The notes beneath the pieces were generated by a model. It was not told the origin of the DNA. It made no database searches and saw only the letters and a program-made list of their open reading frames with translations. Of a stretch of 64,000 nucleotides of DNA, positions 6,707 through 35,459 are shown piece by piece (position 1 is the stretch's first letter; each line of letters begins with the position of its first letter). Where the stretch lies: positions 3,588,555 to 3,652,554 of the forward strand of contig CAVYRF010000002.1 of assembly GCA_963770895.1 (NCBI GenBank), read 5' to 3'. The position numbers were made by a program, and so were the translations under genes. The DNA is from an uncultured Acidobacteriota bacterium (GTDB lineage Bacteria > Acidobacteriota > Thermoanaerobaculia > Multivoradales > UBA5704).

Positions 6707-6709
6707 GTT

Positions 6710-7588
6710 TCAGACCTTGGTGATCGATCGCCGGCCGAAGATGCCGGAAGGTTTGATCAGCAGGATGAGGATGAGCAGGATGAATCCGGGCGTGTCCTTG
6801 TAGCCGGTCGAAATGTAGCGCGCGGTCAGCTGCTCGGCCAGGCCGATGAGCAGGCCGCCGACGATGACGCCGACGCCGGATTGCAGGCCGCCGACGATCG
6901 CCACCGCGAACGCCTTGATGCCGAGCAGCACACCCAGGGTGGGGCCGGCGAGCGTCAGCGGCGCCACCAGGACGCCCGAGACCGCGGCGATGGAGGAGCT
7001 GAGGATGAACGAGGCGGTGATCGCCGCCGGCACGTTGATGCCGGCCAGCGCCGCCGCCTCTTTGTCGGCCGCCACCGCGGTGACCGCCTTGCCCCACAGC
7101 GACCAGCGGCGGAACGCTTCGACGCCGGCCATGATCAGGGCGGCGGCGGCGATGACCAGCAGCTCCTGCGGCAGCAGGCGCAGGCTTCCCAGGCGCAGCG
7201 GCGCGCCGCCCAGGGGCGCCGGGAACGAATAGTCGTCGGTGCCCCAGATCCGCTCCGCGGCGTTGCGCGCCACGATCCCCAGGGCGACGGTGGCGAGCAC
7301 CCAGGCGACCGGCGAGCCGGTGCGCAGCGCCGGCCGGATGGCCAGGTGCTCCAGCACGAGGCCGAGCAGGATGCCGGCCAGCGCCGCGCCCAGCAGCGCC
7401 GCCGGGTAGCCCAGCTTGAGGCGCACGTCCAGGGTCAGGCCGACCAGGGCGCCCAGCATGAGGAATTCGCCCTGGGCGAAGTTGACGGTGCGCGAGGTCG
7501 AAAAGGTGATGCTGTAGCCGAACGCCACCAGCGCGTAGATCATGCCCAGGGCGATGCCGGACAGGATCAGCTGAACCAGGTCGCTCAT
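6710..7588 (-). CDS. livH: Branched-chain amino-acid ABC transporter permease LivH
   Basis: 'MSDLVQLILSGIALGMIYALVAFGYSITF' is a canonical LivH N-terminus. Eight TM helices. Its stop lies 3 nt before the livM-G start. Confidence 0.85.
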   Translation of the reverse strand: MSDLVQLILSGIALGMIYALVAFGYSITFSTSRTVNFAQGEFLMLGALVGLTLDVRLKLGYPAALLGAALAGILLGLVLEHLAIRPALRTGSPVAWVLATVALGIVARNAAERIWGTDDYSFPAPLGGAPLRLGSLRLLPQELLVIAAAALIMAGVEAFRRWSLWGKAVTAVAADKEAAALAGINVPAAITASFILSSSIAAVSGVLVAPLTLAGPTLGVLLGIKAFAVAIVGGLQSGVGVIVGGLLIGLAEQLTARYISTGYKDTPGFILLILILLIKPSGIFGRRSITKV

Positions 7589-7616
7589 GGGCGTTCGCCG
7601 CGCGGGTGTGCGACGG

Positions 7617-8855
7617 TCAGGGTTTCGGCGGCTGGACCTGGCCGCCCTGCACGACGCCCATGACGACGTTGGCGCTGTGAATGGCTTCGTGATCGGTGGC
7701 GCTGAACGGCTGCGAGAAGGTGGCGATCACGCCGTCATAGGGCTTTTGCAAGGTTTCCAGCGCCGCCTTGATCTGCGGCCCGGCGGTCGAGCCGGCCTGC
7801 TGGATCGCCTGGGCGATCAGGTAGAGCGAGTCGTACCCCTGTGCTGCCGACACGGCGGACGGGATGCGATCGTCCTTGAACTTCCGCTGATAGTCGGCGA
7901 TGAACTGCTTTGCCTTGGCGGTGGCGGCGCCGTTCTGGATGAAGGTCTGCGGCATGGTGGCGCCGTCGCCGTTGGCGCCCGCGGCTTCGATGAAGTTGGA
8001 CATCGACAGCGTCCAGCTGCCGATCATCGGCACCTTGTAGTCCAGCTTCTGCATGCCGTTGGCGATCTGCGCCAGCTCGGGGCCGATGCCGTAGACGAGC
8101 AGCGCCTGGGCGCCGGCGGCGCGCGCCTGTTCGAGCTGCGGCGTCATGTCGGTGTCCTTGATCTTGAACTTGCCGACGTAGACCGGCTGCACCCCGGCGG
8201 CGGCGATCGCGGTCTGCATCTTGGTGCAGCCGTTCTGGCCGTAGTTGGTGTCGTCGCACAGGAAGGCAACCTTTTTGAGCCCGCGCTTGACGACCGCTTC
8301 GTGCACGATCATTTCGGCCTGGATGTTGTCGCTGGCGGCGATGCGGAACACGTAGTTGTCGGGATTGTCCTTGAACAGTTCGTTGACCGGCGCCCCCGCC
8401 GAGACGTTGATCAGCAGCGGCACCTTGGCCTGCATCGGATATTTGTAGCTGGCCAGGGCGACGCCGGTGTTGATCGGTCCGAGCACGGCGACGACCTTTT
8501 GATTGCTGACCAGGTCCTGCATGACCTGGGCGCCGCGCTCGTTGGTGGCCTGATCGTCGCGCTCGACCAGCTCGATCTGCTTGCCGAGCACGCCGCCGTG
8601 GGCGTTGATCTCGTCGGCCGCCAGGCGCACGCCGTCGCGCATCGACAGCCCCATGGGCGACGAGCCGCCGGTCAGCGGGCCGTAGACGCCGATCTTGATG
8701 GTGTCGCCGCCGCCGGCACCACCGGCGCCCGGACCGCTCCCCGGCTTGGCGCAGCCGGCGACGAGCGCCAGGGCGAGCAGGGGCAGCGCCAGAAGGGTGG
8801 CGGTCCGCAGCAGGGTGCAGGTGGGTCGCGATTGCCGGAGCTGGGCTAGGAGCAT
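7617..8855 (-). CDS. livK: Periplasmic branched-chain amino-acid binding lipoprotein (LivJ/LivK family)
   Basis: 'DTIKIGVYGPLTGGSSPMGLSMRDGVRLAADEINAHGGVLGKQIELVERDD' matches the type I PBP (LIV-binding) fold. Lipoprotein signal 'LLALALVAGC'. Start chosen at the ATG at 8855, which has a GAGG RBS-like motif upstream (the ORF track extends to 8960). Confidence 0.8.
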   Translation of the reverse strand: MLLAQLRQSRPTCTLLRTATLLALPLLALALVAGCAKPGSGPGAGGAGGGDTIKIGVYGPLTGGSSPMGLSMRDGVRLAADEINAHGGVLGKQIELVERDDQATNERGAQVMQDLVSNQKVVAVLGPINTGVALASYKYPMQAKVPLLINVSAGAPVNELFKDNPDNYVFRIAASDNIQAEMIVHEAVVKRGLKKVAFLCDDTNYGQNGCTKMQTAIAAAGVQPVYVGKFKIKDTDMTPQLEQARAAGAQALLVYGIGPELAQIANGMQKLDYKVPMIGSWTLSMSNFIEAAGANGDGATMPQTFIQNGAATAKAKQFIADYQRKFKDDRIPSAVSAAQGYDSLYLIAQAIQQAGSTAGPQIKAALETLQKPYDGVIATFSQPFSATDHEAIHSANVVMGVVQGGQVQPPKP

Positions 8856-9066
8856 GGAAACCTCGCCAGGTTCAAGGGCCGCGTTGTGGTCGGCTCGACC
8901 CTGGGCCCGGTACCGAGCCCGGTCGATCGCCGCCGCGCGATCCTGTGTCATTGCTAGCACGATCGTTGCCGGGAGAATACCATTTCGTCACACGAGCGCC
9001 ATAGCCGGCCGGACTCGGGGTCATGGCGACTGCGCTGGCCGGGGGGGCGGTCGGGGCTGTCGCCTA

Positions 9067-10959
9067 TCACGGCGGTCCCTGCAGATCAGTCGCGGCTGCC
9101 GCCTGTCGCGACACTCCCGGCGGGGCGGTCGGGGCTGTCGCCTGTCCCGACATTCCCGGCAGGTTATTTCTTTGCAGCAGGGCGCAGCGGGCGGGGTTTT
9201 GGGGGTCCAAGGCGTCGATGCGATGGAAATTGGCCTGCAGGTAGGTCCAGGTCTGGGGGTGGGTGTTGGCGAAGGTCAGCTCTTCCTGGCGGTCGACGGT
9301 GGCGTCCGTCAGGATGACCCAGGCGACGTCGTGGCGGCGCAGCTCGTCGACCATGCGGCGGTCGAGCGGTCCGGCGGCCGGCCAGAGGGGGTAGATGTCG
9401 TAGACCGGCGACGTGCGCCCCAGGAACGGATACAAGCCGGGCAAGTTGGGAGCCATCAGGACGGGGGCGCCGGGAGGGATGCGGGCGGCGGCGCTCCGTG
9501 CCCAGGCCAGCAGGCCGGCGGTGGGCGGCCGCAGGTAGAGCGTTTCGCCGGCGACCTGGGCGGCGACCGAAGGTCTGCCGCTCAGAACGCGAAAGAACGG
9601 CTGGGCCGGCACCGCGGTGGCAGTGGTGATCCCGCAGAGCGCCAGGGCGACCGAGGCCGCGGCCAGCCATCTCGTCCCGCGGGCGGCCGGGCCAGGCGCC
9701 GAATCGCCGCAACCTGCGGGGTCGGGCGCAGTGGCGCTACTGCTGGCGGCGTCTGGCGCCCTGGGCGTGCGGCGCCGGTTCAGGATCGCCGCGGCGGCGC
9801 CGCCGGCGGCGCGCGGCAGGGCGACCAGACCCAGGAGCAGGGGCGGGATGCTGGGCGCCAGGTGGGCCAGGTCGGCGCGCGAAAATGCGTGGTGGGTGTA
9901 GACGCTGCCGACGACGACGGCGGCGGCGAACAGCGCGTGCCGCCGCAGGCGCGGGCCGGGCAGGCAGAGCACGGCGATGGCGCCGCCGATGAAGAAAGCC
10001 GCCATCAGCAGGAAGCAGAAGCTGATGCTGAAGGTCTGGGCGGCCGCCCACGGCGTCAGGCCGGAGTACTGGAAGCGCCAGGGCCAGGGTACCGGCAGCG
10101 GAAAGTTGGTACGCCCTTCGTGCACGAAAAAGAGGATGGAGTCCAGGTAGCTGCGCCAAAAGCCGGGCACCAGAGCCAGCATGGCAAGCAGCGGCGCCGC
10201 ACCCAGGAGGATGCCCGCCGTCCAGGCTCCCAACCGCCCCGCCAGCCGGCGCAAACCGCGCCCGCCATCGCGCAGGTGGAGGAGCAGGATGAGCGCGAAA
10301 AAGGCGACCCCCAGGTAGAGGCCGTGGTTTTTCCCCATGAAGACGCCGAAACCGACCAGGGCGCCGGCGATGCAGTGCCGCCGGGCGGTCGGGCGCTCGA
10401 TCAGGGCGACGGCGGCCAGCACCGCCGCCATGGTGATCGCCGGCTCGAACAGCTTGTTGCGCGGCAGCAGCCAGAGCGTCAGCACGATGCCGACCGCGGC
10501 CAGGCCCAGGCGGCTGGCGACGGCGCGGCGCGCCGCGAGCAGGCCGCAGAACAGGCCGAGCGCGGCAAAGACAGCCGTGCTGATGCGCAGCCCCAGCAAC
10601 CCCTCCCCGACCAGCGGCGTCCACGCCGCCGCCCAGCCGTAGCGGCCGGGGTCGTAGGAATAGAAATCCCGCAGCGGCACGGCGCCGTGCGCGACGGCCA
10701 CCGCGCCATACCAAAGGAATCCCTCTTCGTTGAACGTGAAGTCAATCCGCAGCTGCGCCAGCAGCAGGCCCGCCACCAGCATCACGGCCAGCAGCGCCGG
10801 CAGCAGGACGCCGAAGTGGGCCTCAGCCGGCGGCGGAGGCGCCAGCGCTTCGCCTATGGGCGTCGCCGGCGGCAAGCCGCGTGTGGAGGCAGATGGGCCA
10901 GCGGGGGTCAGGGAATCGGAAGCCGGCACCATATGAAAGCCGAGAAGGGGCGGAGACAA
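9067..10959 (-). CDS. GT-C-fold integral membrane glycosyltransferase (PMT/ArnT-like) with a C-terminal periplasmic domain
   Basis: About 11 TM helices, then a soluble C-terminal domain of about 200 aa. Large aromatic-rich first loop. Divergently oriented to the giant secreted proteins. TTG start at 10959 or ATG at 10932. Confidence 0.55.
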   Translation of the reverse strand: MSPPLLGFHMVPASDSLTPAGPSASTRGLPPATPIGEALAPPPPAEAHFGVLLPALLAVMLVAGLLLAQLRIDFTFNEEGFLWYGAVAVAHGAVPLRDFYSYDPGRYGWAAAWTPLVGEGLLGLRISTAVFAALGLFCGLLAARRAVASRLGLAAVGIVLTLWLLPRNKLFEPAITMAAVLAAVALIERPTARRHCIAGALVGFGVFMGKNHGLYLGVAFFALILLLHLRDGGRGLRRLAGRLGAWTAGILLGAAPLLAMLALVPGFWRSYLDSILFFVHEGRTNFPLPVPWPWRFQYSGLTPWAAAQTFSISFCFLLMAAFFIGGAIAVLCLPGPRLRRHALFAAAVVVGSVYTHHAFSRADLAHLAPSIPPLLLGLVALPRAAGGAAAAILNRRRTPRAPDAASSSATAPDPAGCGDSAPGPAARGTRWLAAASVALALCGITTATAVPAQPFFRVLSGRPSVAAQVAGETLYLRPPTAGLLAWARSAAARIPPGAPVLMAPNLPGLYPFLGRTSPVYDIYPLWPAAGPLDRRMVDELRRHDVAWVILTDATVDRQEELTFANTHPQTWTYLQANFHRIDALDPQNPARCALLQRNNLPGMSGQATAPTAPPGVSRQAAAATDLQGPP

Positions 10960-11171
10960 GTGAGTCTAGCATCGCGGCTACCGCGCCGGCGGGGACACGA
11001 TAGCTGTGTTGCGCCGTGCAATTCGCAACAGCGCAATCCTGCATTCGCCATTCAGCGGTTGTTGCCGCGTAGTCCCGAAGCCATCATGTACGCGCAGGCG
11101 GAACGCGCCGACTTGGCTCCCATACCGCGGCGGGCCTGCTGGCCTTGACGAGCACATGCCAAATCAGTGTG

Positions 11172-11201
11172 TTGACGCAGGTGAATGGATACCGGTAGGC
11201 T
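11172..11201 (+). promoter_or_regulatory. Candidate sigma70-like promoter for the giant surface-protein gene
   Basis: TTGACG (11172-11177), 18-nt spacer, TAGGCT (11196-11201), about 135 nt upstream of the ATG at 11335. Lies in a divergent intergenic region that also holds the inverted repeat TTGCGCC...GCGCAA. Confidence 0.25.
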
Positions 11202-11334
11202 GTATTCCGCTTCAGAGCTGCAGACGCCGGAATTAGCAAACGCGCGGGCGTGGCGCTCGACCGCTGTCGGGAATGTACTCAGCGGCCGGCGCCCTCATCG
11301 TCCGAGGTTCCTTGCTGACCTGCCGGAGGTGATA

Positions 11335-14300
11335 ATGCGGCACGTGGTTCGAGCGCCTGTGCGGTTCCGTCTCGATGCATCGGGCGCAGTCCGAGCCGGC
11401 ATACGGTTCGTTGTCGCAGCATGCTCCCTGGCAGCTCTGGCCACCACCACGCTGGCCGCACAGACGGTGACGCTTCAGGCGAGCGCCGACACCACTCTCA
11501 AGCAGGGCAGTCCCAACAAGAGCTTTGGCGGTGAGGCGAGCCTGACCATCAAGGAAGGCGGCAGCCGCGTTCTCCTCCAGTTCGACGGCGGCGCCATCGC
11601 TGCGGCGGTGGCCGGCGGTAGCCTGGCCTCGGCAGAACTTCAAGTCTACATGGGCGCCAATGCGGGGAATTGGGGCGCCACAGGCCGCACCGTGGACATC
11701 TATCAGCTCACAACCGCGTGGACGGAGGGCGGAGCGACCTGGAACTGCGCCGCCGATCCGAACCCTGGGCATACCGGTGCCGGCTGCACGAGTCCCTGGT
11801 CCGGCGGCACTCCCGCACAGGGCGGCAATGGCGCGAGCGGAGACGGCGAGGCGACCGACACGGCGCTCATCACGAACGGCACCAGCGGCTGGGTGACGTT
11901 CGACGTGACCTCGGATGTCGCGGCGTTTCTCACCGGCACGCCGAACAACGGATGGCTCCTCCAGAAGACGGACGAGGGCCAGGCGGGCAGGATCGATCTG
12001 GTCTCGCGGGAGGGAACGGCGGGCCTCGGCCCGAGGCTGATCCTGGTCAGCCAAAGCGCCACCTTCGACACGGTGCCGCCGTCACTCGCCATCGTGTCGC
12101 CGTCACAGCCGGTCTTGGTGAACGTGCCCGCACCGGCGGTTGGCCTCACCTATCAAGACCCCGGCTCGGGCGTCGACACCTCGACACTTCGAGTCGCAAT
12201 CGACGGTCAGGATTTCAGCTCGGGATGCAGCATCGGAGCGCAGGCGGCGAGTTGTCAGGCGCCTGTGCTGGCCGCCGGCGCTCACACCATCACGGCGAGC
12301 GTGAGCGATCGCGCAGGCAACGTCGCTACGGCCACGACGAACTTCCAGCTGCTCCTCGGTCCCGGCATCTCTACTCTCACTGTCCCGGTGAGCGCCGACA
12401 CCTTCGTCACCGCCATGAGCCCCGACCATGAGCACGGGCGCGCCGCCGTGCTGCGGGTCGAAAAGAGCGGCCCGAGCCGGGCACTGGTCGCGTTCGACCC
12501 CGGAAGCCTCGCGGCCGCTGTGGCCGGCAACCAGGTGCTGGCGGCTCAGCTTCAGCTCGGAGTCGCCGCGAATGCCAAGAATTGGGGAGCGGCCGGGCGC
12601 ACCATCGGCGCCTACCGGCTGACCACGGCATGGTCCGAGGCGGCGGCGACCTGGGACTGCCCTGCCGATACCAACTTGGACAATGCCACACCCGACTGCG
12701 CGGCACCGTGGAACGGCGGCTCGTTCGTGGCCACGCCGACTGCAACGGCGCTGATCACGCGGCAGACCATAGGGAGCGTGAGCTTCGATGTGACCGCCGA
12801 CGTGACCGCCTTCCTCGCCGGCACCGCGAACGACGGTTGGCTGATCGCGAAGACCGACGAAGCGCTGGCCGGGCGGATCGATTTCGCCTCGCGCGAGGCG
12901 AGCTCAGGCCAGGCGGCGCAGCTCATCGTTCAGGTCCAGGTCCCGGCGCCGCTGCCAACGGTAGCGATCACCTCGCCGCCCGACGGCTCCTACGCGCGTA
13001 CTGCGATCGTCCAGGTCACCGGGCAGGCGGGTGGGTCCGCGACCAGCGTGTCGGTGAACGGTCAGGCGGCGACGCTCGGTCAGGGCGGCGCCTTTACCAC
13101 GCAAGTCACCTTGATCCCAGGTGCCAACTCGATCGTCGCCGTCGCCTCCGACGCCGCCGGCAACCAGGCGGCGGCCACGGTCAGCGTCATTCTCGACACC
13201 ACGCCCCCGACCGTGACGCTGACCTCGCCGCTGCCCGGAGCAATCACGAACCAGCCGCAGGTCGTGGTCTCCGGCACTGCGCTCGACGACAACGGCGTCG
13301 CCTCCCTCATGGTTGCCGGCCAGGCGGTTGCGCTCTCGGGCAGTCAGTTCTCGACCACGGTCCACCTGGCTGCGGGATCGAACCCGATCATGGTCACCGC
13401 CACCGACTTGGCGGGCAACACAGAGACCGTTTCGGTCACCGTGACGCAGTTCAGCGTGCCGGTGGTCTCGATCTCGGCGCCGGCCGACCTGAGCTATGTG
13501 AACGCCACCACGGTCACTGTGAGCGGCACCGCCACCGGCGCCACGAGCCTCAGTGTGAACGGCGTGGCGGCGGTGCTCTCGGCCTCTGGCTTTACCGCCG
13601 CCGGCGTGCCCCTCATCGAAGGCGGTAATACGCTCACCGCCACGGCTACCGACGGTCAAGGCCACGTGGGGATCGCGAGCATCAACGTGGTGCGCGACCT
13701 GACGCCGCCGCACGTCGCGATCTATACCCCGGCCGCCGGTGCCACGATCACCGGCTCGTCGGTCACCGTCTCCGGCCTGGTGAACGACATCGTGGCCGGC
13801 ACCGTCAACACCAGCAACGCGACGGTGACCGTGAACGGCATTCCAGCGACGGTCGCCAACCGCTCCTTTATAGTCCCCACTGTGCCGCTGCAACCGGGCA
13901 ACAATATCCTGACGGCCGTGGCGGTCGATGCCGCCGGCAACCAGGCACAGGCAACGGTCACAGTGCGCCAGATGACCCCGGCCGGTGCGCGCATCGCGGT
14001 GGCGGCCGGCAACAGCCAGAGCGCGCCGATCGTGACATCGTTGCCGCAGCCCCTGGTGGCCGTGTTGCTCGACCCTTCCGGTCAGCCGGTCGTGGGGCAG
14101 CAGGTGCTCTTTCAGGCCATTGGCACCGACGGCACCTTCGACAACGGGCGGCGCACCTATGCCGTGACGAGCGATGTTTCGGGCCAGACCACGGTGCACT
14201 TTACGGTAGGGAGCCACGCCGGCGCGGGCAACCAGATGGTGAAGGCAACGGCACCCGGCTTCAGCGGGCCGGCGCAGTTCGTGGCCAGTGCGCAGCCAGG

Positions 14301-15978
14301 AAGCCCGACGCTCCTCGTGGTCGATTCGGGTGACCAGCAGCAGGGCGTCGCCGGCCAGGCCCTGCCGCTCCCCCTCGTGGCGGTCGTGGTCGATGCCGGC
14401 GGCAACCGTCTGGCCGGCGTCGCGGCGACGCTCAAGGTGGTGAAGGGGGCCGGCACCTTCACAAACGGTCAGCCAACGGTCTCCTTGACCTCCGACACCG
14501 ACGGGCGGCTCATCGCCTCGTTCATCACCGATCCCGCGGAGGGAGTGGCCAACAACGTGGTGGAAGCGACGATCGACGTCCTGCCCACGGGGCCGGTGGT
14601 GAGCTTCACGGCCTCAGCGCTCGCAGCCTACGACCCGGCGCTCACCGCGATCAGCGGCGTCGTGCTCGACAACAGCAACCAGCCGGTGCCGGGAGCCACC
14701 CTCCGCATCCTCGGCACGGCGCTCACTACCGAGAGCGACCCGCAGGGCCTCTTCCAGCTCGCAGCAGTACCCGCCGGCACGCTCCAGCTTGTCGTGGACG
14801 GCAGCACCGTCCAGCGTCCCGGCTCCTGGCCACAGCTGGAGTTCAACCTGACGCCGGTGCCCGGCCGTAACAACACCCTGCGCATGCCCGTCTACCTGCT
14901 ACCGCTGAACCTCGAAAATGGCATCGTCGTGGATGAGACGCACGGCGGCACGCTGACGCTGCCCCAGCTGCCGGGCTTCGCCCTCACCATCAAGCCGGGA
15001 TCGGTCACCTTCCCCGGCGGTGGAAGGAGCGGGACTGTGAGCGTGACCGTGGTGCACAGCGACAAGGTGCCGATGGTGCCGAACTTCGGCCAGCAGCCCC
15101 GCCTGATCGTCACCATCCAACCGGCAGGAGCGCAATTCAATCCGCCCGCGAACCTCAGCATGCCGAACGTCGAGGGTTTCCCCGCCGGCAAGGTCGCGGA
15201 GCTCTACTCCTTCGACCATGACCTCGGCCACTTCGTGAGCATCGGCCCCGGCACCGTGAGCGACGACGGCACCGTCATCACCTCGAACGCGGGGGTGGGC
15301 ATCGTCAAAGCTGGCTGGCACTGCTGTGGCTTCCCCCAGGGAAGCGGGGCTCCGAATGCCTGTCCTGAGTGCGCGCCGTGCACCGGCGCCCAGTGCACGC
15401 CGCAGCTTTGCAAGGCTTGTGCTGCGCCTGGGCTGTACTGCGACTCCGCCGCAACCTGCGTACCCGGTCTCCAGCTAATCCCCAGCCTTTGCGATGGTCT
15501 CAAGGTTGAGGAAAAAGGCCTTGTGCAGGGACCATGCAGCCTGGTTCCGGAACTAAAAGGGCTTCCAGATATTTGTGGCGCTGCCGCGGCCATCGACTAT
15601 CCGAACGTCGTTATTACCAAGCCTTCAGCCTGCGCGAGTGTAGATCTATCCGGCGGCGAGTGGCGCGAGGTCATGACTTCGGATAACGGATGCCATCAAT
15701 CTGGCGGGGTGAGAGATGGAAGCTGCATCATTTCCAGCCCAGGGAACCGCTTAGGTCCCGCAGGGAAAGTTTGTCGGGACTACCTGTATTCCTGTGACTA
15801 TCTCTCCGAATTGACCACCTGTAGAGAGACAAGACTACAGCGAATTTATGTCGGCTCGTGCCACGTTGCCACAAAGAGACTGGTCTTTGATATTACTGTC
15901 GCTGCCGATGGCGCTAGTTGTGGCGGATTGGTGACGAGGACGGACGTTCCGCCCGGAGATCCAGATTATGGCAACTGA
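11335..15978 (+). CDS. Giant secreted cell-surface protein (1547 aa): two tandem ~190-aa beta-sandwich modules, multiple Ig-like domains, a carboxypeptidase-regulatory-like domain, and a Cys-rich C-terminal module
   Basis: The ATG at 11335 has a GGAGGTG RBS 6 nt upstream and a signal peptide ('FVVAACSLAALATTTLAAQ'). The module 'ADTTLKQGSPNKSFG...LLQFD...TAWTEGGATWNC...GWLLQKTDE' occurs twice. T/V/A-rich Ig-like repeats ('PPTVTLTSP', 'PPHVAIYTP') follow. 'VVLDNSNQPVPGATLRILGT' is CarbopepD_reg-like. The last ~230 aa hold about 26 Cys and are lower in GC. Confidence 0.75.
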   Translation: MRHVVRAPVRFRLDASGAVRAGIRFVVAACSLAALATTTLAAQTVTLQASADTTLKQGSPNKSFGGEASLTIKEGGSRVLLQFDGGAIAAAVAGGSLASAELQVYMGANAGNWGATGRTVDIYQLTTAWTEGGATWNCAADPNPGHTGAGCTSPWSGGTPAQGGNGASGDGEATDTALITNGTSGWVTFDVTSDVAAFLTGTPNNGWLLQKTDEGQAGRIDLVSREGTAGLGPRLILVSQSATFDTVPPSLAIVSPSQPVLVNVPAPAVGLTYQDPGSGVDTSTLRVAIDGQDFSSGCSIGAQAASCQAPVLAAGAHTITASVSDRAGNVATATTNFQLLLGPGISTLTVPVSADTFVTAMSPDHEHGRAAVLRVEKSGPSRALVAFDPGSLAAAVAGNQVLAAQLQLGVAANAKNWGAAGRTIGAYRLTTAWSEAAATWDCPADTNLDNATPDCAAPWNGGSFVATPTATALITRQTIGSVSFDVTADVTAFLAGTANDGWLIAKTDEALAGRIDFASREASSGQAAQLIVQVQVPAPLPTVAITSPPDGSYARTAIVQVTGQAGGSATSVSVNGQAATLGQGGAFTTQVTLIPGANSIVAVASDAAGNQAAATVSVILDTTPPTVTLTSPLPGAITNQPQVVVSGTALDDNGVASLMVAGQAVALSGSQFSTTVHLAAGSNPIMVTATDLAGNTETVSVTVTQFSVPVVSISAPADLSYVNATTVTVSGTATGATSLSVNGVAAVLSASGFTAAGVPLIEGGNTLTATATDGQGHVGIASINVVRDLTPPHVAIYTPAAGATITGSSVTVSGLVNDIVAGTVNTSNATVTVNGIPATVANRSFIVPTVPLQPGNNILTAVAVDAAGNQAQATVTVRQMTPAGARIAVAAGNSQSAPIVTSLPQPLVAVLLDPSGQPVVGQQVLFQAIGTDGTFDNGRRTYAVTSDVSGQTTVHFTVGSHAGAGNQMVKATAPGFSGPAQFVASAQPGSPTLLVVDSGDQQQGVAGQALPLPLVAVVVDAGGNRLAGVAATLKVVKGAGTFTNGQPTVSLTSDTDGRLIASFITDPAEGVANNVVEATIDVLPTGPVVSFTASALAAYDPALTAISGVVLDNSNQPVPGATLRILGTALTTESDPQGLFQLAAVPAGTLQLVVDGSTVQRPGSWPQLEFNLTPVPGRNNTLRMPVYLLPLNLENGIVVDETHGGTLTLPQLPGFALTIKPGSVTFPGGGRSGTVSVTVVHSDKVPMVPNFGQQPRLIVTIQPAGAQFNPPANLSMPNVEGFPAGKVAELYSFDHDLGHFVSIGPGTVSDDGTVITSNAGVGIVKAGWHCCGFPQGSGAPNACPECAPCTGAQCTPQLCKACAAPGLYCDSAATCVPGLQLIPSLCDGLKVEEKGLVQGPCSLVPELKGLPDICGAAAAIDYPNVVITKPSACASVDLSGGEWREVMTSDNGCHQSGGVRDGSCIISSPGNRLGPAGKVCRDYLYSCDYLSELTTCRETRLQRIYVGSCHVATKRLVFDITVAADGASCGGLVTRTDVPPGDPDYGN

Positions 15979-16903
15979 AGGTCGTGTGATCGCGCGCTCA
16001 GTCCGGCGTGTCCTTTCCTTGCCACTCTGGCTGGCCTTCCACCTCGCCTGGATCACTGCCGCGAGCGCCCAGCCATCCGGCTGCTCATGGAGCGGTCCTT
16101 CCGTCGAGTCGTTTCTGGCTCAACATCCGCCGATAACTGCAAAGGAGGGGACGCTGGTTGCGGTCGTGGCGGCTTTTCAACGCGCGGGACTCCCCGTGTG
16201 CCTTGTCGCGAAGCGAGGAAACCAGCAGGTGAGGCTCGCGTCTGAGCCTACCCTGGAAGAGGTGCTGAAGGGGCTCGTGAGTCAGGCGCCAGGTTACCAG
16301 TTCCGTAGCGTAGACGGCAGGCTCGTGATCTATCCACAGGGGCAGGCCTTTGATACGCCCGTGGACCTGGGCCCTCTTCAGCGCATGACTCGCGCAGCTG
16401 CATACATGACCGTGCTCCACCGGCTGTCGCTTAAGGTGAAGGACCTTGCGGAGCTACGCAGTGGGATCAGCAACGAGGGCGCGGGGTGGGGTAAGCTCTC
16501 CTATTCCGACACGATCGAGGTCGGCGGGTCACGCACCGTCATTGAACATTTGATGTCTTTGGTCCAGAAGCGCCCTGCTCTTGCGTTCGACGTAACCATA
16601 GATGGCATGCGGCTTCGGTATGAGTTTGTCGATACCCCGCTTTTGACAAGGCTGGAGCTGCATTTGCCGCCTACCGTCAAGGTGGGGGAGACCTTCCCTG
16701 TAGAGGTGATGGCGAAGCTGGTCGATGGAGCGACAGCGCCCCTTTCAGGACCGGAATGTTGGGTGGGCTATGCGACAAGTAATCCCGAGGGCCTGGAGAT
16801 CGATGATGCTGGAATCGTTACGGCACGCCGCAAGGGTACTTTCAAAATCTACGTCAACTACCAGCACGTTCCCGCCGTCTACGCCGACGTCACCGTCGAA
16901 TAG
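15968..16903 (+). CDS. Secreted hypothetical protein with a C-terminal Big_2-like Ig domain. Translationally coupled (11-nt overlap) to the giant protein gene.
   Basis: Its ATG sits inside 'ATGGCAACTGA', which ends the upstream ORF. N-terminal hydrophobic signal ('LSLPLWLAFHLAWITAASAQ'). Lower-GC codon usage matches the upstream Cys-rich module. The C-terminal 'GIVTARRKGTFKIYV' resembles a Big_2 fold. Confidence 0.55.
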   Translation: MATEGRVIARSVRRVLSLPLWLAFHLAWITAASAQPSGCSWSGPSVESFLAQHPPITAKEGTLVAVVAAFQRAGLPVCLVAKRGNQQVRLASEPTLEEVLKGLVSQAPGYQFRSVDGRLVIYPQGQAFDTPVDLGPLQRMTRAAAYMTVLHRLSLKVKDLAELRSGISNEGAGWGKLSYSDTIEVGGSRTVIEHLMSLVQKRPALAFDVTIDGMRLRYEFVDTPLLTRLELHLPPTVKVGETFPVEVMAKLVDGATAPLSGPECWVGYATSNPEGLEIDDAGIVTARRKGTFKIYVNYQHVPAVYADVTVE

Positions 16904-16923: not shown

Positions 16924-19900
16924 ATGAACCTGGCTGCCGATCGTGCTCCGATGGCCTTGCTCGCGCCAAGGCATCGGCGCATATTCTTCCTGCCCTTGCT
17001 GCTTCATTTGCTCACGGCCGCGACATCCTTCGCCCAACTCGACCAGACCTGCACGGTGAGCGCCTTGAACCGGACGGCACAGGTGGATGGCAACGGGGTC
17101 TGGGTGCTTACAAACGTGCCGGCAGGAACTGGCCAGGTGCGAGTGCGCGCAGCGTGCATGGCAAACGGCACGACCCGGTATGGGCAGTCGGACCTCTTCA
17201 CGGTGCCGGTCAACGGCGCCATTCTGGTGAGCGATATTTCCTTTGCGAGCCAGGTACCGATTCCGTCGAGCCTGACGCTCACGGGACCGGGCTCGCCGCT
17301 GTCAGGTGCCGGCCAGCAGGCGCAGCTTTCGGCCATTGCGACCTACCCTGACGGCACGACGGGGGACCTCACGCCCAGCAGCACGGGCACCGGATATCTA
17401 TCGAGCAACCCGTCGGTGGCAAGTGTGGACGGGAACGGAGTGGTGACGGCCAACGCCAGCGGCACGGTGGTGATCAGCGCATTGAACGAGGGCGTGCTTG
17501 GCGTGGTGCAGGTACAGGTGGTGCTTTCCGGCAGCACGGTGGGCGACGGCATCCCGGACGATTGGAAGGTGGCGCACGGACTTGATCCCAACGATCCGTA
17601 CTGCGCGCTGGAAGATCCCGACAATGACGGGCTCACCAACCTGGAGGAGTACCAGTACGGCACCGATCCGAACAACCCCGATACGGATGGCGACGGGCTG
17701 TCGGACGGCGACGAGGTGCACCTCTACCACACGAACCCGCTCCTATGGGACACGGACGGGGACGGGATCTCGGATGGAGTCGAGGTGCGGACGGGGAGCG
17801 ATCCGCTCGACATCCACAGCTTCAACCTGGCGGCGGCGCTCTCTTCGGTCACGGTGTCTCCGGCCGCGTTCACTTTGGTCTTCAATACGGTGAGCGGCCA
17901 GGCGTCGCGACAGATCGTCGCCACAGGCAACGTCATCGACGGCCGCACCATCGATCTCTTCGATCCGCGCTACCAGACCCAGGTCGCATCGAGCAACCTC
18001 GCGGTCGCGAGCTTCGGAGTGCGACCGGGCCAGGTGTTCGCCGGGCAGAGCGGCACGGCGACGGTCACGGTGAGCAACAGCGGCTGGACGGCCGCATCCA
18101 CCGTGACGGTGACGACGTTCTCGCCCACGGCCCTGGCGTTCCTGCCGCTTCCTGGATTTCAGAATGCGGTGGAGGCGGCAGGCGACTTCGTGTTTGTGGC
18201 CTCCGGCGGCTTCGGGCTGTCAGTCGTGGATATGACCAACTTGCAAGCGCCGGTGCTCGTCGCTCAGACGCCCACCCCGGGCAGTGCGAACGATGTGCGG
18301 GTTTCTGGCACGGTGGCGTATGTGGCCGAGGATGTCGGTCTGCAACTGCTCGACGTGAGCGATCCGGCCCACCCGGCGCGGCTCGGCAGCCTGAGCCTCC
18401 CCGAGGGCGACCAGGTGCGTCTGGCGGTAGCCGGCAACCTGGTCTATCTCGCCGACATGAACTTCGGCCTCCACGTGGTGGATGTGACGAACCCCATGCA
18501 GCCGGTCGAGGTCGGCTCGCTCGCGCTCGGGGGCACGCCGCGGGCGGTCGGTCTCGGCGGAATCGGGCTCGGCGGGTTCGCTCTCGCCGGATCGTATGCC
18601 GTGGTTGCCTGCGGCGATGGGGGTGTGGCGGTGGTGGACGTGAGCGATCCGGCGGCGCCGTCCCTTGTGGGCGCCACGCCGGAGGATGCGCCGCGCGCCG
18701 GCAGCGTTACGGTGCGCGGCCACTACGCCTACGTGGCCGCCGGCGAGGAGGCGGTCTACGGCGGCTTGCACGTCGTGGAGCTTGCCGACCCGACGAATCC
18801 TGTGGAAGTGGGGGCGAGCGAGGACGACCTCGGGGTGACCCGGGCGGTGCTCCAAGACGGGTTTGCCCTGGGCGCGCAGTTCTTCCTGGCCGCGCAGGTG
18901 GCAATCTTCGATGTCAGCACCGTGCCTCCTGCCTATACGGCGGTGCTCGACCTCTCGACCTTGCCCGGCGGCGAGGGGGTCGTCGCGCCGCGTGCCAATG
19001 ACATCGCGGTGCGCAACGGCGCGGTCTTCTTGGCCGCCAACGGGTATGAGCTCGGCGAGTTCGCGAGCTACGCGACCTCTCAGGGGGGCCTCTACACGGG
19101 CCTCTTCGAGCTGCCGAACGACGGTGACACGACTCCGCCGACCGTGGCCCTCTCCGCACCGACGGCCGGGTCCGCGGTGATGGAGCGGCTGCCGGTCACC
19201 GTGACCGTCGCGGCGCAGGATGAGGTCTCAGTCACCTCGGTCGGCATCCTGGTCGACGGCGCCCTCGTCGAAACGCTCTACAAGCCGCCGTATCAGACCA
19301 CCATCCACGTGCCGTCCGGGCAGCCGACGATGACGCTCGGGGCGGTGGCGACGAACATCAGCGGCGTCCAGGCGACGACGACGGAGACGCTTACCGTCCA
19401 GCCGTACCCCTTGCCCGTCGCGACGCTTCTCGCGCCCGTGCCCGGCCAGATTCTGATCGACGGCACGCCGCTCACGATCGCGGTTGCGGCGAGCGACGCC
19501 GTGGCGGTGACGCGGGTCGAGGTCTATGTGAACGGCGCGCTCGTCGGCACGGCTTTCACGCCGCCGTACCTCTTTCAGGTCACGCTGCCGCGCGGCTCGG
19601 CGACGCTCGCGGTGACGGCGCTCGCATACAACGCGCTGGGGCCGGGCGCGATGTCGGCGCCGGTCGCTGTGCCGGTCCAGCCAGACGTGCCGCCCACGGT
19701 TGCGATCTTCTCGCCGGCCGACGGCGCGCAGGTGACCGAGGGAAGTGTGGTCTCGATCTTTGCAGGCGCGAGCGACCTGACCGGAATCGCAAGCGTGCTC
19801 TTCGATCTGAACGGCGTCGAGTTCCAGGGCACCGCCACCGCACCCTACGTTGCCCAGGTCGTGGCGCCGCCGGCGGGCCAGACCATGGTGCTCGATGTCG

Positions 19901-20970
19901 TCGCGACCGATACCGTGAACCTGGCGGCGCAGTCAGCACCGGTCACCGTTACGAGCGTGGTCGATCCGGGAACGGCGGTGAGCGGCACGGTGCTCGATCC
20001 GACCGGCGCCCCGGTCTCGGGAGCGAGCATCGTCGTGGTTGCGGGCGCTTCCTCGGCGAGCGCCACCTCCGGTGCGGACGGGTCCTTTACGGTGAGCGGC
20101 CTGCCGACCGGGAGCGGCGCCTTCGAGGTGAGCGCGGTCGGCACGGTGGGCGGCTGCCAGGCGGAGGCCGATGCCGAGGTGCCGCCGCCCCCGCCGGGCC
20201 GCAACGAATCGCTCGGCAACCTGACGCTCGTCCGGCCTCCGGCACCGGAGCCCACGGCCGTGACCGGCGTCGTTGTCGGTGCCGACGGCCAGGGGCTCTC
20301 CGGTGTCACGGTGACGGTTTCGAGCGCCGACCTGGCGGACACCGCCACCGTCCTAAGCGGCTTCGGTGGCGCCTTCTTGGTATCGACCTTCCCCGCGCGG
20401 GCCTGGACCCTCCAGGCCGAAGCGACGGTCGTGAGCGGCGGTGTTCTGCTCTCCGCCGCAAGCGACCTGCATGGCCCGCACGCGGTCGCGGGCGGCACGA
20501 CGGACCTTGGCACCCTGACCCTGAGCCCCTATCCCTTCACCGGCCCCGATCCCTTGACCACGGTCACCGGCCAGGCCACGAACCTCGACGGCTCACCGGC
20601 CGCCGGCGCCCAGGTGGTGCTCGACGTGGGCGATGGCCAGATCGTCGCGACCGCCGCTTCCGACGGAACCTTCGCCGTTTCCGGCGTGCCCACCCTGCAA
20701 GGCACGCTGAAGATCACCGCCTCGCTCCACCTGCCGTGCAACGTGCTCCTGGTTGCCGGCCCCATGACGGTGAGCGAGCTTGTGGCCGGCGGCCAGACCG
20801 CCGTGAGCCTCCCGCAGCTCGTGCCCGATCCGGGGCCGCCGCCGCCGATCATTTTCACTTCGGCACCGGTCGGAGGGTGGCCCGCGGAAGGCATGCGGTG
20901 CGTGGCCGCTCCGAGCGCCGCCGACGGATGGTTTGCGACGCTCACGAGCGCGGCGGAGTTCCTGCGTTGA
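16924..20970 (+). CDS. Giant secreted surface protein (1348 aa): Big_2 domain, thrombospondin-type-3-like Ca-binding repeats, LVIVD beta-propeller repeats, Ig-like and CarbopepD_reg-like domains
   Basis: Signal peptide '[18 protein letters not shown]'. '[45 protein letters not shown]...[13 protein letters not shown]' are TSP3/calcium-binding repeats. Repeated 'VA-G--GL-VVDVS-P' units are LVIVD repeats. Multiple 'PPTVA..SP..G' Ig-like modules. '[22 protein letters not shown]' is CarbopepD_reg-like. Confidence 0.75.
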   Translation: [1348 protein letters not shown]

Positions 20971-23388: not shown

Positions 23389-23709
23389 ATGACCTCCAGG
23401 AAAAGGGCACTTCCCCCTTCACGCCTATTCTGGTCCTGCGGGCGTCCACGGTCAAGCGGATGCGAAAAGCCAGGAAGCCCGGCGGGCCATTCCCGCTGTC
23501 AAGGCAAGTGTAAACAGTGAGCCGCGCGGGCTTGTGGCCCCCGCCGTCGTGGGCAAGCCAGGTGCTTTCGATCCGAACACGCCAGGCTTGCCCTTGCCGG
23601 GCGTGCTTGAGCGTCACCCGCCGGGATGCCGGCGCCGCAGGCGGGTCCGGCGGAGCCCCCCGCGCCTGGGTTGGGTTGGGGGACTCCGCCGGATGTGGGG
23701 GTGGGGCGT

Positions 23710-25617
23710 TTACCGGGGCCGGGACCGGCCGCCGGTGGGAGGAGCGAGCGGCGCGGCAGGGGGCGGCCCGCCGCCGGGCTTGTTGCGCCGGCGCAGGCGC
23801 CCCACGGCCACGCTTCCGAGCAGGGTGAAGAGCGTCGCCAGGCCGGCGCTGCCCAGGGTCGGGACGGCGGCGGGCTGGGTGGGTGTGCCCGGGCCGCCGG
23901 GATTGCCGGGTGGCTGGGGCGGGGTCTGGGCGCTGGAGCAGGCGGTGTCGCCGGCGGCGTCGGTCAGGCAGGAGCTGTTGGCGATCTGCTGCAGTCCGGC
24001 CGGCAGCGGCGCGGCGGCGGTCAAGGCGAAGGTGCGGGTGCCGGAGGCGTCGGCCGGCAGCGGCCCCAGGGCCAGGGTGCAGGTGGCGCCGGGACCGCCG
24101 GCGGCGGGCGAGCAGGTCCAGCCGGGCGAGCTGGCGGCGGCGGCAAAGGCGGTGGCGTCCGGGACGGTTTCTCCCAGGCTGGCGGCGGCGGCGTCCTGGT
24201 CGCCGGTGTTGGCGTAGGCCAGCTGAAAGACCAGGGTGGCGCCGGCGGCCAGGGCCGGGCCGGCGTAGCTCTTGGCGAGCGACAGGTGCGGGTTGCCGTG
24301 GGTGGGCGAGGAGACGCTGGCGCAGACCGGCGCCAGGCCGGCGGCGCTGGCGCAGGCGGTGTTGGCGATGGCGGTGATGCCGGCGGGAAGCGGCGACGCG
24401 ACGGTGACCGCGAAGGTGCCATGGAGCGTGGCGCCGGCTGCGAGGGTACCCAGCGCGTCGGTGCAGCTGGCGCCGGCGGGGCCGGCGGCGGGGACGCAGC
24501 TCCAGCCTGGCGAGCCGGCGGCGTCGAAGGCGGTGGCGGCGGGGACGGTCTCCGCCAGGACGACGCTGCCGGCTCCCTGGTTGCCGGTGTTTTGCACCGC
24601 CAGGTCCCAGGTCAGCACGCCGCCGGGCGCACCGGTGCCCTGGGTGAGCGATTTGACCACCTTGAGCGCGGCGGCGCCGGTGGTGGCGGTGGCGACGCTG
24701 GCGCAGGCGGCGACGGTGGTCGGGCCTTCGCGCACGCAGGCGGTGTTGTTGATCACGCTGACGCCGGCGGCCAGAGGGCTGGCGAGCGTCACCGCGAACA
24801 GGCTGGTGAGCGTGCCGTCAGCGGCCAGGTTGCCGACCGGGTTGCGGCACAGCGCGCCGGGGTTGCCGTCCGGCGCGCAGACCCAGCCGGCGGCGCTGGC
24901 GGCGGCGTCGAAGGTGGTATTGGCCGGCACCGTGTCGACCAGCTGCAGGCCGCCGTCGCCCAGGCCGCTCAGGTCGCGCACCGTCAGGGTGTACAGCAGG
25001 GTCGAACCGGGGGCTCCGGAACCGGCGGCGGTCTTCTGCAGGCTGACGTGCGATGGCGTCGCGGCGCCGCAGGCGGCGGCGCCGGCGCCCTGCGAGGCGG
25101 CGTCGAACGAGCGGCCGTCGGAGGTCGTCGCCTGGGCGGTGGCGGTGAAGGCCGGTGAGGTGGTGGACTCGAAGAGCGCCTGCCAGGTGACGACCACGGT
25201 CCAGCTGTTGTTGTCGAGCGGGTCTGCCGGACAGCTGAAATTGACCGCGCCCGAGGTGTCGCCGGGGCCGTTGCCGCGCGCCACGGTGGGCTGGCAGCCG
25301 ACGGTGAGGTCGTTGTCGATGCGCAGCGTCCCCGGCTGGTAGACCAGACCGCTGGTGCCGGCGCCGGGGATCGTCAGGCTGCCGGTGAGCGCCGGGGTGC
25401 CCGAATCGCGGGTGGCGTAGGTGGCGCTCAGCAGCACCGGCTCGCCGCAGTCGAGGATGCCGTTGCCGTTGACGTCGACGAAGCCGGCGACCGCGACCTG
25501 GAGAGACGGTTGCGCCGCGAGCGGCGGGGCGGCGCCGCCCAGCAGGACGGCGCGGATGGTGGCGCCGCGGGTGCGGCGGCAGGCAGGGGGGGTGGTGGGG
25601 GTGGCGGGTGGGTGCAT
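23710..25617 (-). CDS. Cell-surface protein with four DUF11-type conserved repeat domains and a C-terminal IPTL-CTERM-like sorting signal
   Basis: ATG at 25617 with an AAAGGAGGG RBS. Repeats of 'L-K...G-PG--L-Y-L-V-N-G...V-L-DTVP-...F' are present, for example 'LQKTAAGSGAPGSTLLYTLTVRDLS...LVDTVPANTTF'. C-terminus 'VPTLGSAGLATLFTLLGSVAVGRLRRRNK' has the xPTL motif, a hydrophobic helix and an Arg cluster. Its start lies 26 nt after the parB-like stop. Confidence 0.75.
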   Translation of the reverse strand: MHPPATPTTPPACRRTRGATIRAVLLGGAAPPLAAQPSLQVAVAGFVDVNGNGILDCGEPVLLSATYATRDSGTPALTGSLTIPGAGTSGLVYQPGTLRIDNDLTVGCQPTVARGNGPGDTSGAVNFSCPADPLDNNSWTVVVTWQALFESTTSPAFTATAQATTSDGRSFDAASQGAGAAACGAATPSHVSLQKTAAGSGAPGSTLLYTLTVRDLSGLGDGGLQLVDTVPANTTFDAAASAAGWVCAPDGNPGALCRNPVGNLAADGTLTSLFAVTLASPLAAGVSVINNTACVREGPTTVAACASVATATTGAAALKVVKSLTQGTGAPGGVLTWDLAVQNTGNQGAGSVVLAETVPAATAFDAAGSPGWSCVPAAGPAGASCTDALGTLAAGATLHGTFAVTVASPLPAGITAIANTACASAAGLAPVCASVSSPTHGNPHLSLAKSYAGPALAAGATLVFQLAYANTGDQDAAAASLGETVPDATAFAAAASSPGWTCSPAAGGPGATCTLALGPLPADASGTRTFALTAAAPLPAGLQQIANSSCLTDAAGDTACSSAQTPPQPPGNPGGPGTPTQPAAVPTLGSAGLATLFTLLGSVAVGRLRRRNKPGGGPPPAAPLAPPTGGRSRPR

Positions 25618-25643
25618 GGGTGTACGGTCCCTCCTTTGGGGGG

Positions 25644-26555
25644 TCAGGCGAGGCAGGCGTACAGCTGCTCGACGCGCTCGTCGGGGCTGCCGTGCGGCTG
25701 GCTGCCCAGACGGACCAGCAGCGTGTCGAGCTGCGGCGTGGTGAGCTGGACGGTCAGCGGCTGGTGGAGCCCGGCGGCGACCGTGGGATCCAGGTCGGGG
25801 GCAGGATGGCCGGCGGTGCCGCCGGCAGGGGCAGGGGAAGGATCGGTGGGGGGCGCCGTGGCGGCGGCGAGGTCACTGCCGGCGTAAGCACCGGCACCGG
25901 CGCCGGCGTCGCGCAGCTGGGCGGCGATTTCGATCTGCTGCACCGTGATCGGGCCGCCGGTGCGCCGCGCCAGCGCCAGCAGGCGATTCTGCTGGGGCGC
26001 CGGCAGGCGATCGAACAGGTTGGCGCCCAGGATGCTGGCCAGGAACCCCTCGCGCAGCGCGTCGCCGAGCGGGCCGGTGGCGGCGGCCAGGCGCAGGTAG
26101 TGGGAGCACCAGGCGGGCGAGCGGTGGTGCCGGCGGGCGAAGTCGGTCTTGGTCAGGCCGGAGAGCGCCACGGCGCGGGCGATGGCGCGGGCGCGGTCGT
26201 AGAGCGACAGGCTGCGCCGCAGCTCGCCGTCGTTTTCGTCGAGCTGCAGCATGAGCCGGTCGGACGGCGACAGCGGCTCCTGGCGCACCACGACCGGCAC
26301 CGCCTGCAGGCCGGCCAGCTGGGCCGCCTGCCAGCGGCGGCCGCCGGTGATGATCTGGAAGGGCGTCGTCGCGCGCGCCGCCGGCAGCGGGTGGGGCGCC
26401 ACCAGCAGCGGCTGGATGACGCCGTGCGCCCGCACGCTGGCGGCCAGCGCCTCCAGGTCCGGCCCGGCGATCGTGCTGCGCGGCTGGTCCGGGTCGGGGG
26501 CGATGGCGGACACGGCGACCAGCAGGGCGCCGGCCGGCGCGGCGGGAGCGCTCAA
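25644..26555 (-). CDS. ParB/KorB-like protein (ParB N-terminal domain plus HTH)
   Basis: 'HGVIQPLLV...ITGGRRWQAAQLAGLQAVPVVV' carries the ParB/Srx GxRRxxAA box. 'LTKTDFARRHHRSPAWCSHYLRLAA' is the ParB HTH. A 4-nt overlap with the trbI stop places it inside the trb operon. Confidence 0.75.
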   Translation of the reverse strand: MSAPAAPAGALLVAVSAIAPDPDQPRSTIAGPDLEALAASVRAHGVIQPLLVAPHPLPAARATTPFQIITGGRRWQAAQLAGLQAVPVVVRQEPLSPSDRLMLQLDENDGELRRSLSLYDRARAIARAVALSGLTKTDFARRHHRSPAWCSHYLRLAAATGPLGDALREGFLASILGANLFDRLPAPQQNRLLALARRTGGPITVQQIEIAAQLRDAGAGAGAYAGSDLAAATAPPTDPSPAPAGGTAGHPAPDLDPTVAAGLHQPLTVQLTTPQLDTLLVRLGSQPHGSPDERVEQLYACLA

Positions 26556-28297: not shown

Positions 28298-28300
28298 GGC

Positions 28301-31265: not shown

Positions 31266-31277
31266 GGCGGCTCCGCG

Positions 31278-35001: not shown

Positions 35002-35023
35002 CGCGCTGGTCTCCGCCGTCTGG

Positions 35024-35386: not shown

Positions 35387-35459
35387 GACGGGGTTTCCTC
35401 CGGGGTGGGGTCCAAGGCGGCCGTGGCAGCTGGGCGGTGGTTGGGGAGCGGTGGCGGGC

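Follow-up and report, generated by a model that had tools for sequence, protein, structure and literature searches.

The question raised by this locus is whether the low-GC end of a giant surface-protein gene, together with the small gene that overlaps it, forms a unit that is exchanged independently of the rest of the gene, as a reading of the sequence alone had proposed. The locus lies in a stretch of 64,000 nucleotides (nt) from an uncultured Acidobacteriota bacterium (assembly GCA_963770895.1, contig CAVYRF010000002.1, positions 3,588,555 to 3,652,554), which is referred to as the window and in whose coordinates all positions are given. It comprises a giant gene (gene A), a small gene that overlaps its end (the partner gene) and a second giant gene (gene B). 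We propose, with a probability of roughly 60%, that positions 15313-16903, which contain the end of gene A and the partner gene, form the exchangeable effector/partner cassette of a polymorphic effector system that is exported by Sec. The features on which this proposal is built are as follows.

11335-15978, forward strand: gene A (giant), 1547 amino acids (aa), defined by its open reading frame, translation, Shine-Dalgarno sequence and Pfam matches.
14869-15312, forward strand: pre-domain, the last module of the scaffold, aa 1179-1326, …VTVVHSDKVPMVPNFGQQPRLIVTIQPAG…YSFDHDLGHFVSIGPGTVSDDG…GIVKAGW; conserved in the family and possibly ZU5-like.
15313-15396, forward strand: junction Cys knot, aa 1327-1354, GWHCCGFPQGSGAPNACPECAPCTGAQC, delimited by alignments.
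15397-15975, forward strand: core of the variable tail, aa 1355-1547, predicted to be a disulfide-rich beta-sandwich; the lowest GC of the window.
15968-16903, forward strand: partner gene, 311 aa, with a signal peptide, a GCxW motif, an STN-like N-domain and a Big_2-like immunoglobulin (Ig) domain.
16924-20970, forward strand: gene B (giant), 1348 aa, characterized by Pfam.

Gene A is part of a single open reading frame at 11185-15978, in which the ATG at 11335, preceded by the Shine-Dalgarno sequence GGAGGTGA, was chosen as the start, and the 1547-aa giant protein of the sequence-only reading is reproduced from it. From the N-terminus onward, the protein consists of a signal peptide, CBM96/DNRLRE modules (CBM96, 6e-30), four Ig-like repeats of the Glucodextran_B/Big_13 type (Glucodextran_B, 4e-47), a CarboxypepD_reg domain at aa 1106-1156, the pre-domain, the Cys knot and the variable tail, and the Pfam scan matches no family C-terminal of the CarboxypepD_reg domain. 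The knot starts with a GWHCC motif at aa 1327 (nt 15313), from where 221 aa with 21 of the 28 Cys residues of the protein extend to the stop codon. The Cys-rich C-terminal module noticed before is thus present, whereas its earlier dimensions (~230 aa with ~26 Cys) were too large. The GC content of gene A is 0.67-0.70 up to ~15.3 kb and then falls to 0.63, 0.57 and, by 15600-15899, 0.53, so that the compositional switch reported at ~15.3 kb is real, but it starts from a lower level than the ~72% GC given for it.

The drop is the strongest of the whole window. Among 1274 windows of 300 nt (mean GC 0.715, standard deviation 0.051), the minimum of 0.53 is found at 15601, and a sliding-window check places all ten windows with a GC content below 0.58 within 15451-16900. 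The GC content at third codon positions (GC3) is 0.56 in the tail and 0.69 in the partner gene, compared with 0.85 in both the scaffold and gene B, which bears out the claim that the tail and the next gene have a low-GC signature in common. Because the drop sits in third codon positions, it is not an artefact of amino acid composition. It is also recurrent: of 45 related loci, 41 have a GC3 that is lower in the tail than in the scaffold, and the difference averages 0.12. Gene A and the partner gene overlap by exactly the 11 nt described earlier (ATGGCAACTGA, 15968-15978), and a GGAG lies 10 nt 5' of the partner ATG. Neither repeats flanking the cassette nor promoters or terminators within the operon were found above chance, and no second member of the family was found in the window, where the single 40-aa match at 59488-59607 is at chance level. 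Milder GC dips (0.58-0.60) are also seen at 45900-46500 and around 62900; the gene within the former region (45512-46507, reverse strand) has a GC3 of 0.82 and belongs to no Pfam family.

Among orthologous A proteins the pre-domain is nearly identical in the C-terminal alignment, and identity collapses past the knot, for which the consensus in orthologues is …GIVKAGWHCCGFPQGSGAPNxCPxCxxCTGxQC. In an alignment of 11 window-type sequences, pairwise identity is 81-95% in the pre-domain versus 22-68% after the knot. Synonymous sites are saturated over such distances. Across the whole family the junction motif is …KAGWHC…CPxCxxCxGxxC, and in the alignments and a listing of 50 tails the Cys knot is the last segment common to all tail types, with divergence beginning just after it. 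The invariant residues of the pre-domain are Y-x-x-D-H-D (1291-1296) and K-A-G-W(H-C).

A word-indexed protein search with the tail, either alone or as an 11-sequence profile, returned one fragment only (P0001) and missed the giant A proteins; as these are called genes on JGI/NCBI contigs, the single tail homologue from that search understates the family. Relatives were reached instead through the contigs of partner homologues, a genome scan with the pre-domain and an exhaustive search of protein-cluster representatives. The genome scan identified 64 loci carrying the pre-domain and the knot, mostly in Thermoanaerobaculia or other Acidobacteriota and otherwise in Nitrospirota, Bryobacterales, Verrucomicrobiales, Planctomycetota, Myxococcales and a few proteobacterial metagenome-assembled genomes (MAGs). 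The exhaustive search of 1.84 billion representatives with the pre-domain yielded 3,757 proteins at E ≤ 1e-3, including 2,253 at E ≤ 1e-10, and most of these matches cover only query residues 1 to ~176-200, that is, the pre-domain and the knot. The continuations after KAGWHC are unrelated between loci: when 192 tails were clustered, at least 41 families were obtained, and only two of them are larger than the window type, which has 16 members. Several genomes hold multiple loci with differing tails. The tails of other types to which Pfam gives some identity are the following.

L063 and L064: DUF6531 and RHS repeats directly after the junction, Pfam above threshold.
L026 and L057: 3D domain, Pfam above threshold.
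L020, L028 and L043: DUF6973, Pfam above threshold.
Several loci: PKD and an HExxH-like tail, weak Pfam metallopeptidase matches.
L015: M15-like tail, weak Pfam match.
L030, L031, L039, L049 and L060: PLA2-like tail ending in CDxHDxCYQTC…QCCQ, weak, the sole Pfam match being PLA2G12 at E 0.004.

The Cys-rich end of the PLA2-like sister tails recalls secreted phospholipase A2. In L016, an orphan module at 6288-8069 lies between a full-length giant A gene and a HEAT-repeat partner gene. It retains the end of a scaffold, truncated to what follows from the region of CarboxypepD_reg on, with a pre-domain and another tail of the HExxH type.

The window-type tails are found in the window, in L001, L003, L004/L009, L005-L008, L010 and L033, and in P0001, P0018, P0020, P0021, P0030, P0052 and P0077. 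Among these, the relatedness of the tails does not follow that of the scaffolds. The scaffold closest to that of the window, in L004, is 77% identical to it and its pre-domain 86%, and it bears a tail that is only 28% identical; for the window and L001 the respective values are 66, 83 and 60%, and for L001 and L003 they are 60, 95 and 23%. Over ten loci, the similarity of the tail is correlated with that of the adjacent partner (Spearman/Mantel rho 0.60, permutation p 0.0002) and not with that of the scaffold (rho -0.26), while the similarity of the partner is likewise unrelated to that of the scaffold (rho -0.24). Tail and adjacent gene thus co-vary with each other in the orthologues and not with the scaffold, and the orthologous tails are far from uniform. 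In L003, L004 and L007, which have another tail subtype, the gene next to the tail is a divergent partner paralogue, and a window-like partner survives farther along, immediately ahead of gene B. There are one to three partner paralogues per locus, with extra copies in L001, L003, L004 and L007. Two loci of the same MAG, JASLEW01 (L004/L009 and L033), have identical pre-domain ends followed by differing window-type tails (normalised score 0.13), and their partners differ too, one of them having two N-domains and no Ig domain.

The window tail itself matches nothing in Pfam, NCBIfam or the PDB sequences, including EGF-like and other common structural Cys-rich families, and thus shows no match of the kind that would have spoken against the sequence-only reading. 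In an alignment of 15 sequences, ~15 Cys residues past the knot are invariant or nearly so, as are the polar residues E1445, N1471, D1482 and Q1502; the conservation of these four suggests a functional site common to window-type tails. A confident AlphaFold2 model built from eight sequences (mean pLDDT 79, ~90 over residues 50-246) is a beta-sandwich with one helix. A Foldseek comparison of this model with the PDB gave no E-value below 0.014 and no close solved relative; the weak neighbours are Asf1 histone chaperones, the lipid-binding sandwiches of C2, GM2 activator, PDE6D and MD-2. Further weak structural neighbours are pilins and domain 3 of HAP2. In the model, the tail looks disulfide-rich and non-enzymatic, and no known toxin family or fold matches it in Pfam, NCBIfam or the PDB structure comparison.

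The partner protein matches no family of Pfam or NCBIfam, and none of its 16 homologues is named. It has a plausible signal peptide (aa 1-34, …LAWITAASA/QP), an alpha/beta N-domain at ~aa 95-225 and an Ig domain of the Big_2-like type at aa 226-311. Both domains are seen in its AlphaFold2 model, in which residues 1-98 are unreliable, and the STN likeness of the N-domain is a structural similarity within this low-confidence model (pLDDT 62.6). Window-type tails always precede a gene of the window-partner family, and full-length partner homologues are found only downstream of window-type tails. With their starts corrected, all adjacent members of the partner family have a signal peptide followed by the conserved GCxW; some public gene calls of partners, such as L004 8887, begin downstream of the signal peptide. 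The partners at other tail types contain HEAT repeats, TPR or nothing recognizable, and all are small and have signal peptides. The signal peptide of the window partner had been thought awkward for a polymorphic toxin system, in which a cytoplasmic immunity protein was expected; since every partner checked is exported whatever the tail type, the signal peptide fits payloads that act outside the cytoplasm.

Gene B, third in the operon and conserved, marks where the variable cassette ends on its downstream side. Its product has a signal peptide, Big_2, TSP3 repeats, an LVIVD beta-propeller, three Big_7 and three CarboxypepD_reg domains, and its TSP3 and LVIVD regions give weak NCBIfam matches to cohesion and gliding proteins. 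Orthologous contigs have giant gene A, then one to three partner-family genes, and then giant gene B; a B-type gene also follows the partner or partners in six of the eight non-window-type loci examined. The closest relatives of A, the partner and B are all from Thermoanaerobaculia/Acidobacteriota MAGs, a group from which the window, too, probably comes. By their GC3, these three are the real genes of this region. On both sides the operon is flanked by genes of the opposite strand. Upstream, the forward open reading frame at 8695-11148 (817 aa) was discarded as a shadow of the reverse-strand gene at 9067-10959 (630 aa, GC3 0.88, no Pfam family), beyond which lies a branched-chain amino-acid ABC transporter, also on the reverse strand. 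Downstream, a very GC-rich block (~23700-36500, 0.75-0.81) that may be an integrated conjugative element contains, all on the reverse strand, genes for a DUF11 and IPTL-CTERM surface protein (23710-25617), a ParB_N protein (25644-26555) and a VirB4/TrbE-like ATPase (32093-34951). The last of these, at 32-35 kb, was considered as a delivery component and set aside, as it lies in this separate block. Further downstream, 38136-42854 (reverse strand) encodes a 1572-aa fusion of two GT4/GT1 glycosyltransferase regions and a methyltransferase domain.

Based on these observations, we propose that gene A encodes a long extracellular scaffold, with a signal peptide, glycan-binding CBM96/DNRLRE modules, an Ig-like stalk and CarboxypepD_reg, onto which payload domains would be grafted by recombination past the conserved pre-domain and Cys knot. 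The payload in the window would be a ~190-aa beta-sandwich of no described family with ~10 disulfides, a number that suits a domain folding and acting outside the cytoplasm, and it may act on or in the envelope of a competitor after crossing of the outer membrane and, possibly, release at the junction. The partner, which is coupled translationally to gene A through the 11-nt overlap, is predicted to be an immunity protein: an exported STN-like and Ig-like protein that would bind and neutralise its cognate tail in the periplasm or at the surface of the producer. Its adjacency, its co-variation with the tail and the retained paralogues are the contextual evidence that points to immunity. Tail and partner would pass on and change as one unit, whatever scaffold they sit on, and would come from a gene pool of lower GC3.

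The conserved pre-domain offers a further lead. ZU5 is the only Pfam family that pre-domains match, in 8 of 19 members with a best E of 0.0043, below threshold; for the window the match to ZU5 (PF00791) has an E of 0.044 and 14.5 bits against a cut-off of 21. A profile search of the PDB with the pre-domain found the ZU5 of ankyrin at E 0.05, and a deeper profile found it at E 0.2 with unrelated matches scoring alike. Kinship to ZU5, like any cleavage, is taken here as a lead, since the deeper profile did not strengthen the match. Autocleavage of the HFS type at the GHFVS sequence of the window was rejected, since H1299 and S1302 vary in the family.

Several observations weigh against this proposal. 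The match to ZU5 stays below threshold, and the family lacks a conserved HFS cleavage motif of the canonical kind. The tail is a generic beta-sandwich with no recognisable catalytic fold or motif, which would suit a binding module equally well, and the model of the partner is of low confidence over residues 1-98. The window has neither orphan modules nor extra partner copies, the gap between the partner gene and gene B being only 20 nt, and homologous tails within orthologous operons could have diverged in place under diversifying selection instead of being swapped. Among the neighbouring genes, no secretion or delivery gene adjoins the operon, be it CdiB or another component of two-partner secretion (TPS), a type VI secretion system (T6SS) or another kind. 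For every member of the family, toxicity and neutralisation are what we infer. Seen against the sequence-only reading, the layout of scaffold, variable C-terminal domain and linked partner gene is real and recurs in dozens of genomes with at least 41 tail families, and the polymorphic-toxin interpretation gains from these structural hallmarks but not from the fold of the window tail, which is not enzyme-like. The C-terminal domain is variable across the family as a whole, while within orthologous operons its versions are diverged members of a single family. GC3 and the incongruence of tail and scaffold point to a horizontally acquired unit, although to call it one outright was an overstatement. 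The contact-dependent part of the interpretation finds no support in the surrounding genes.

The beta-sandwich fold would also suit a role of the window tail type in recognition or binding. The tail may be a specificity-determining surface ligand and the partner its receptor or docking protein, used in kin recognition, cohesion or the assembly of A with B. Such a pair would account for the non-enzymatic look of the tail fold, whose weak neighbours include pilins, HAP2 domain 3 and the C2 and GM2-activator types of binding domain, for a partner built of STN-like and Big_2-like protein-interaction modules, for the high diversity of one domain family on a fixed Cys scaffold, and for the adhesion-type modules of gene B with their cohesion- and gliding-like matches. 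It accounts less well for the same junction carrying an RHS cage and 3D, DUF6973, HExxH-like and PLA2-like payloads elsewhere, next to unrelated partners that are HEAT or TPR binders, or for the retention of displaced partner paralogues, which is typical of the accumulation of immunity genes; and the four invariant polar residues of the tail would suit a conserved active site or ligand site better than a purely variable face. We consider recognition rather unlikely as the explanation of the operon. That the partner is a helper for the export or folding of its tail, such as a periplasmic chaperone or an outer-membrane adaptor, and not an inhibitor, appears less probable still. In secretins and TonB-dependent transducers, domains of the STN type make contacts between proteins of the periplasm, so that the STN-like fold of the partner would be at home in such a role; the tight translational coupling of the two genes agrees with it, and the specificity of the partner for its tail type is equally expected of a dedicated chaperone. 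A chaperone, however, need not persist behind new tail/partner pairs, as window-like partners do in L003, L004 and L007, nor be present in one to three paralogues per locus, and the partners of other tail types are HEAT/TPR solenoids, which are typical binders or inhibitors.

The least dramatic explanation is that the tail is a fast-evolving structural or anchoring domain of the EGF-like kind, that the GC dip is noise and that the next gene is unrelated. The tail is indeed Cys-rich and beta-rich, like extracellular structural modules, and no enzymatic signature was found in it. However, it matches neither EGF nor another structural family, no other GC dip in the 64 kb is as deep and such a dip recurs in 41 of the 45 related loci, the junction is common to at least 41 unrelated tail families, and the co-variation of tail and partner is significant (rho 0.60, p 0.0002). 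We regard this explanation as very improbable, and an exchangeable effector/partner cassette as the best account of the locus.

A broader form of the cassette proposal would make the operon a representative of a large class of Sec-exported polymorphic effectors, so far undescribed and with its centre in Thermoanaerobaculia/Acidobacteriota, that has its own junction of a ZU5-like pre-domain and knot, disulfide-rich payloads directed at the envelope and uniformly exported immunity proteins; the tail would then be a new toxin fold, possibly binding lipids or membranes, the partner a new immunity family, and release would occur by cleavage at the junction. This is a tentative extension, with the odds somewhat against the whole of it being correct. 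The locus belongs to a family of thousands of giant secreted proteins, all annotated as hypothetical, in which one junction is followed by dozens of payloads that each come with an exported partner of their own. Acidobacteriota rank with the most abundant bacteria of soil, yet, to our knowledge, little has been learned about how they compete. If the toxin/immunity interpretation is true, this would be a major interbacterial weapon system of a phylum rich in uncultured members; the beta-sandwich tail, the STN-Ig partner and the disulfide-rich PLA2-like and HExxH-like tails would be new toxin and immunity folds, and KAGWHC…CPxCxxC could serve as a motif for mining payloads in metagenomes. If the tail is a recognition module instead, the operon would represent a polymorphic surface-recognition system, which would also be of interest.

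The kind of system to which this locus is compared is already known, while its junction, tail and partner family are unannotated: neither Pfam nor NCBIfam has an entry for the pre-domain with the knot, the window-type tail or the STN-Ig partner family, and the A/partner/B operon and its parts were not found in the searchable literature. With CdiA-CT/CdiI it has in common a giant conserved scaffold, a sharp demarcation motif, a polymorphic C-terminus, a co-varying downstream gene, a lower GC content of the variable part and, in relatives of the window locus, displaced orphan modules. It differs in that Pfam identifies no TPS domain, FHA repeats or VENN motif in gene A and no CdiB among the neighbouring genes, in that the window partner has a signal peptide, and in that contact dependence is unsupported here. 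Exported partners are familiar from the envelope effectors of T6SS, as the immunity proteins of the Tae/Tai, Tle/Tli and Tse1/Tsi1 pairs have signal peptides because the toxins act in the periplasm or envelope. The exported partner of the window and the cell-wall- and lipid-directed payloads of sister loci (3D, M15-like and PLA2-like) resemble these, whereas there are no T6SS genes and no PAAR, VgrG or Hcp here, the effector being fused to a Sec-exported scaffold. In Myxococcus, TraA is a Cys-rich repeat surface protein with a hypervariable N-terminal PA14-like specificity domain, and TraB is its co-operonic partner. A secreted Cys-rich protein, a hypervariable domain and a co-operonic partner are found here too, but the variable domain is C-terminal, there is neither MYXO-CTERM nor an OmpA-type partner, and sister loci carry enzyme-like payloads.

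Two comparisons bear on the junction and the overall architecture most directly. In the passages of Zhang et al. (2012; PMC3482391) available for comparison, ZU5 is a processing autopeptidase of polymorphic toxins, typically placed N-terminal to RHS repeats, and occurs also in large surface proteins with enzymatic C-termini. The systems described in those passages resemble the family analysed here in having a ZU5-type module, which is a candidate in this family, Sec-exported giant proteins, adhesion modules and diverse C-termini, and the order of the ZU5-like module and RHS repeats recurs in L063 and L064. They differ from it in that the ZU5 match is sub-threshold here, the module directly precedes the payload in the window-type proteins and the HFS-type motif is not conserved; the same passages make no mention of the Cys-knot junction or of an A/partner/B operon. 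The WapA/Rhs-type toxins, represented by WapA of Bacillus subtilis and WapA-CT1 of Streptococcus suis (PMC12704120), differ in that Pfam finds neither RHS/YD repeats nor a cage in the window protein, its boundary is the pre-domain and Cys knot and not the DPxGx18DPxG end of the Rhs core, its host is a diderm, its payload is disulfide-rich and its partner is exported and not cytoplasmic. In its plan, nevertheless, the window protein resembles them. WapA of S. suis, an experimentally studied polymorphic toxin, is exported by Sec and has N-terminal DNRLRE (= CBM96) modules (PMC12704120), and both systems combine a signal peptide and such an N-terminal surface-binding module with a long scaffold, a C-terminus that is variable past a conserved boundary, a cognate gene directly downstream and, in some loci, orphan modules. 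The sister loci L063 and L064 bring the two closer still, as they place DUF6531 and RHS repeats straight after the same junction.

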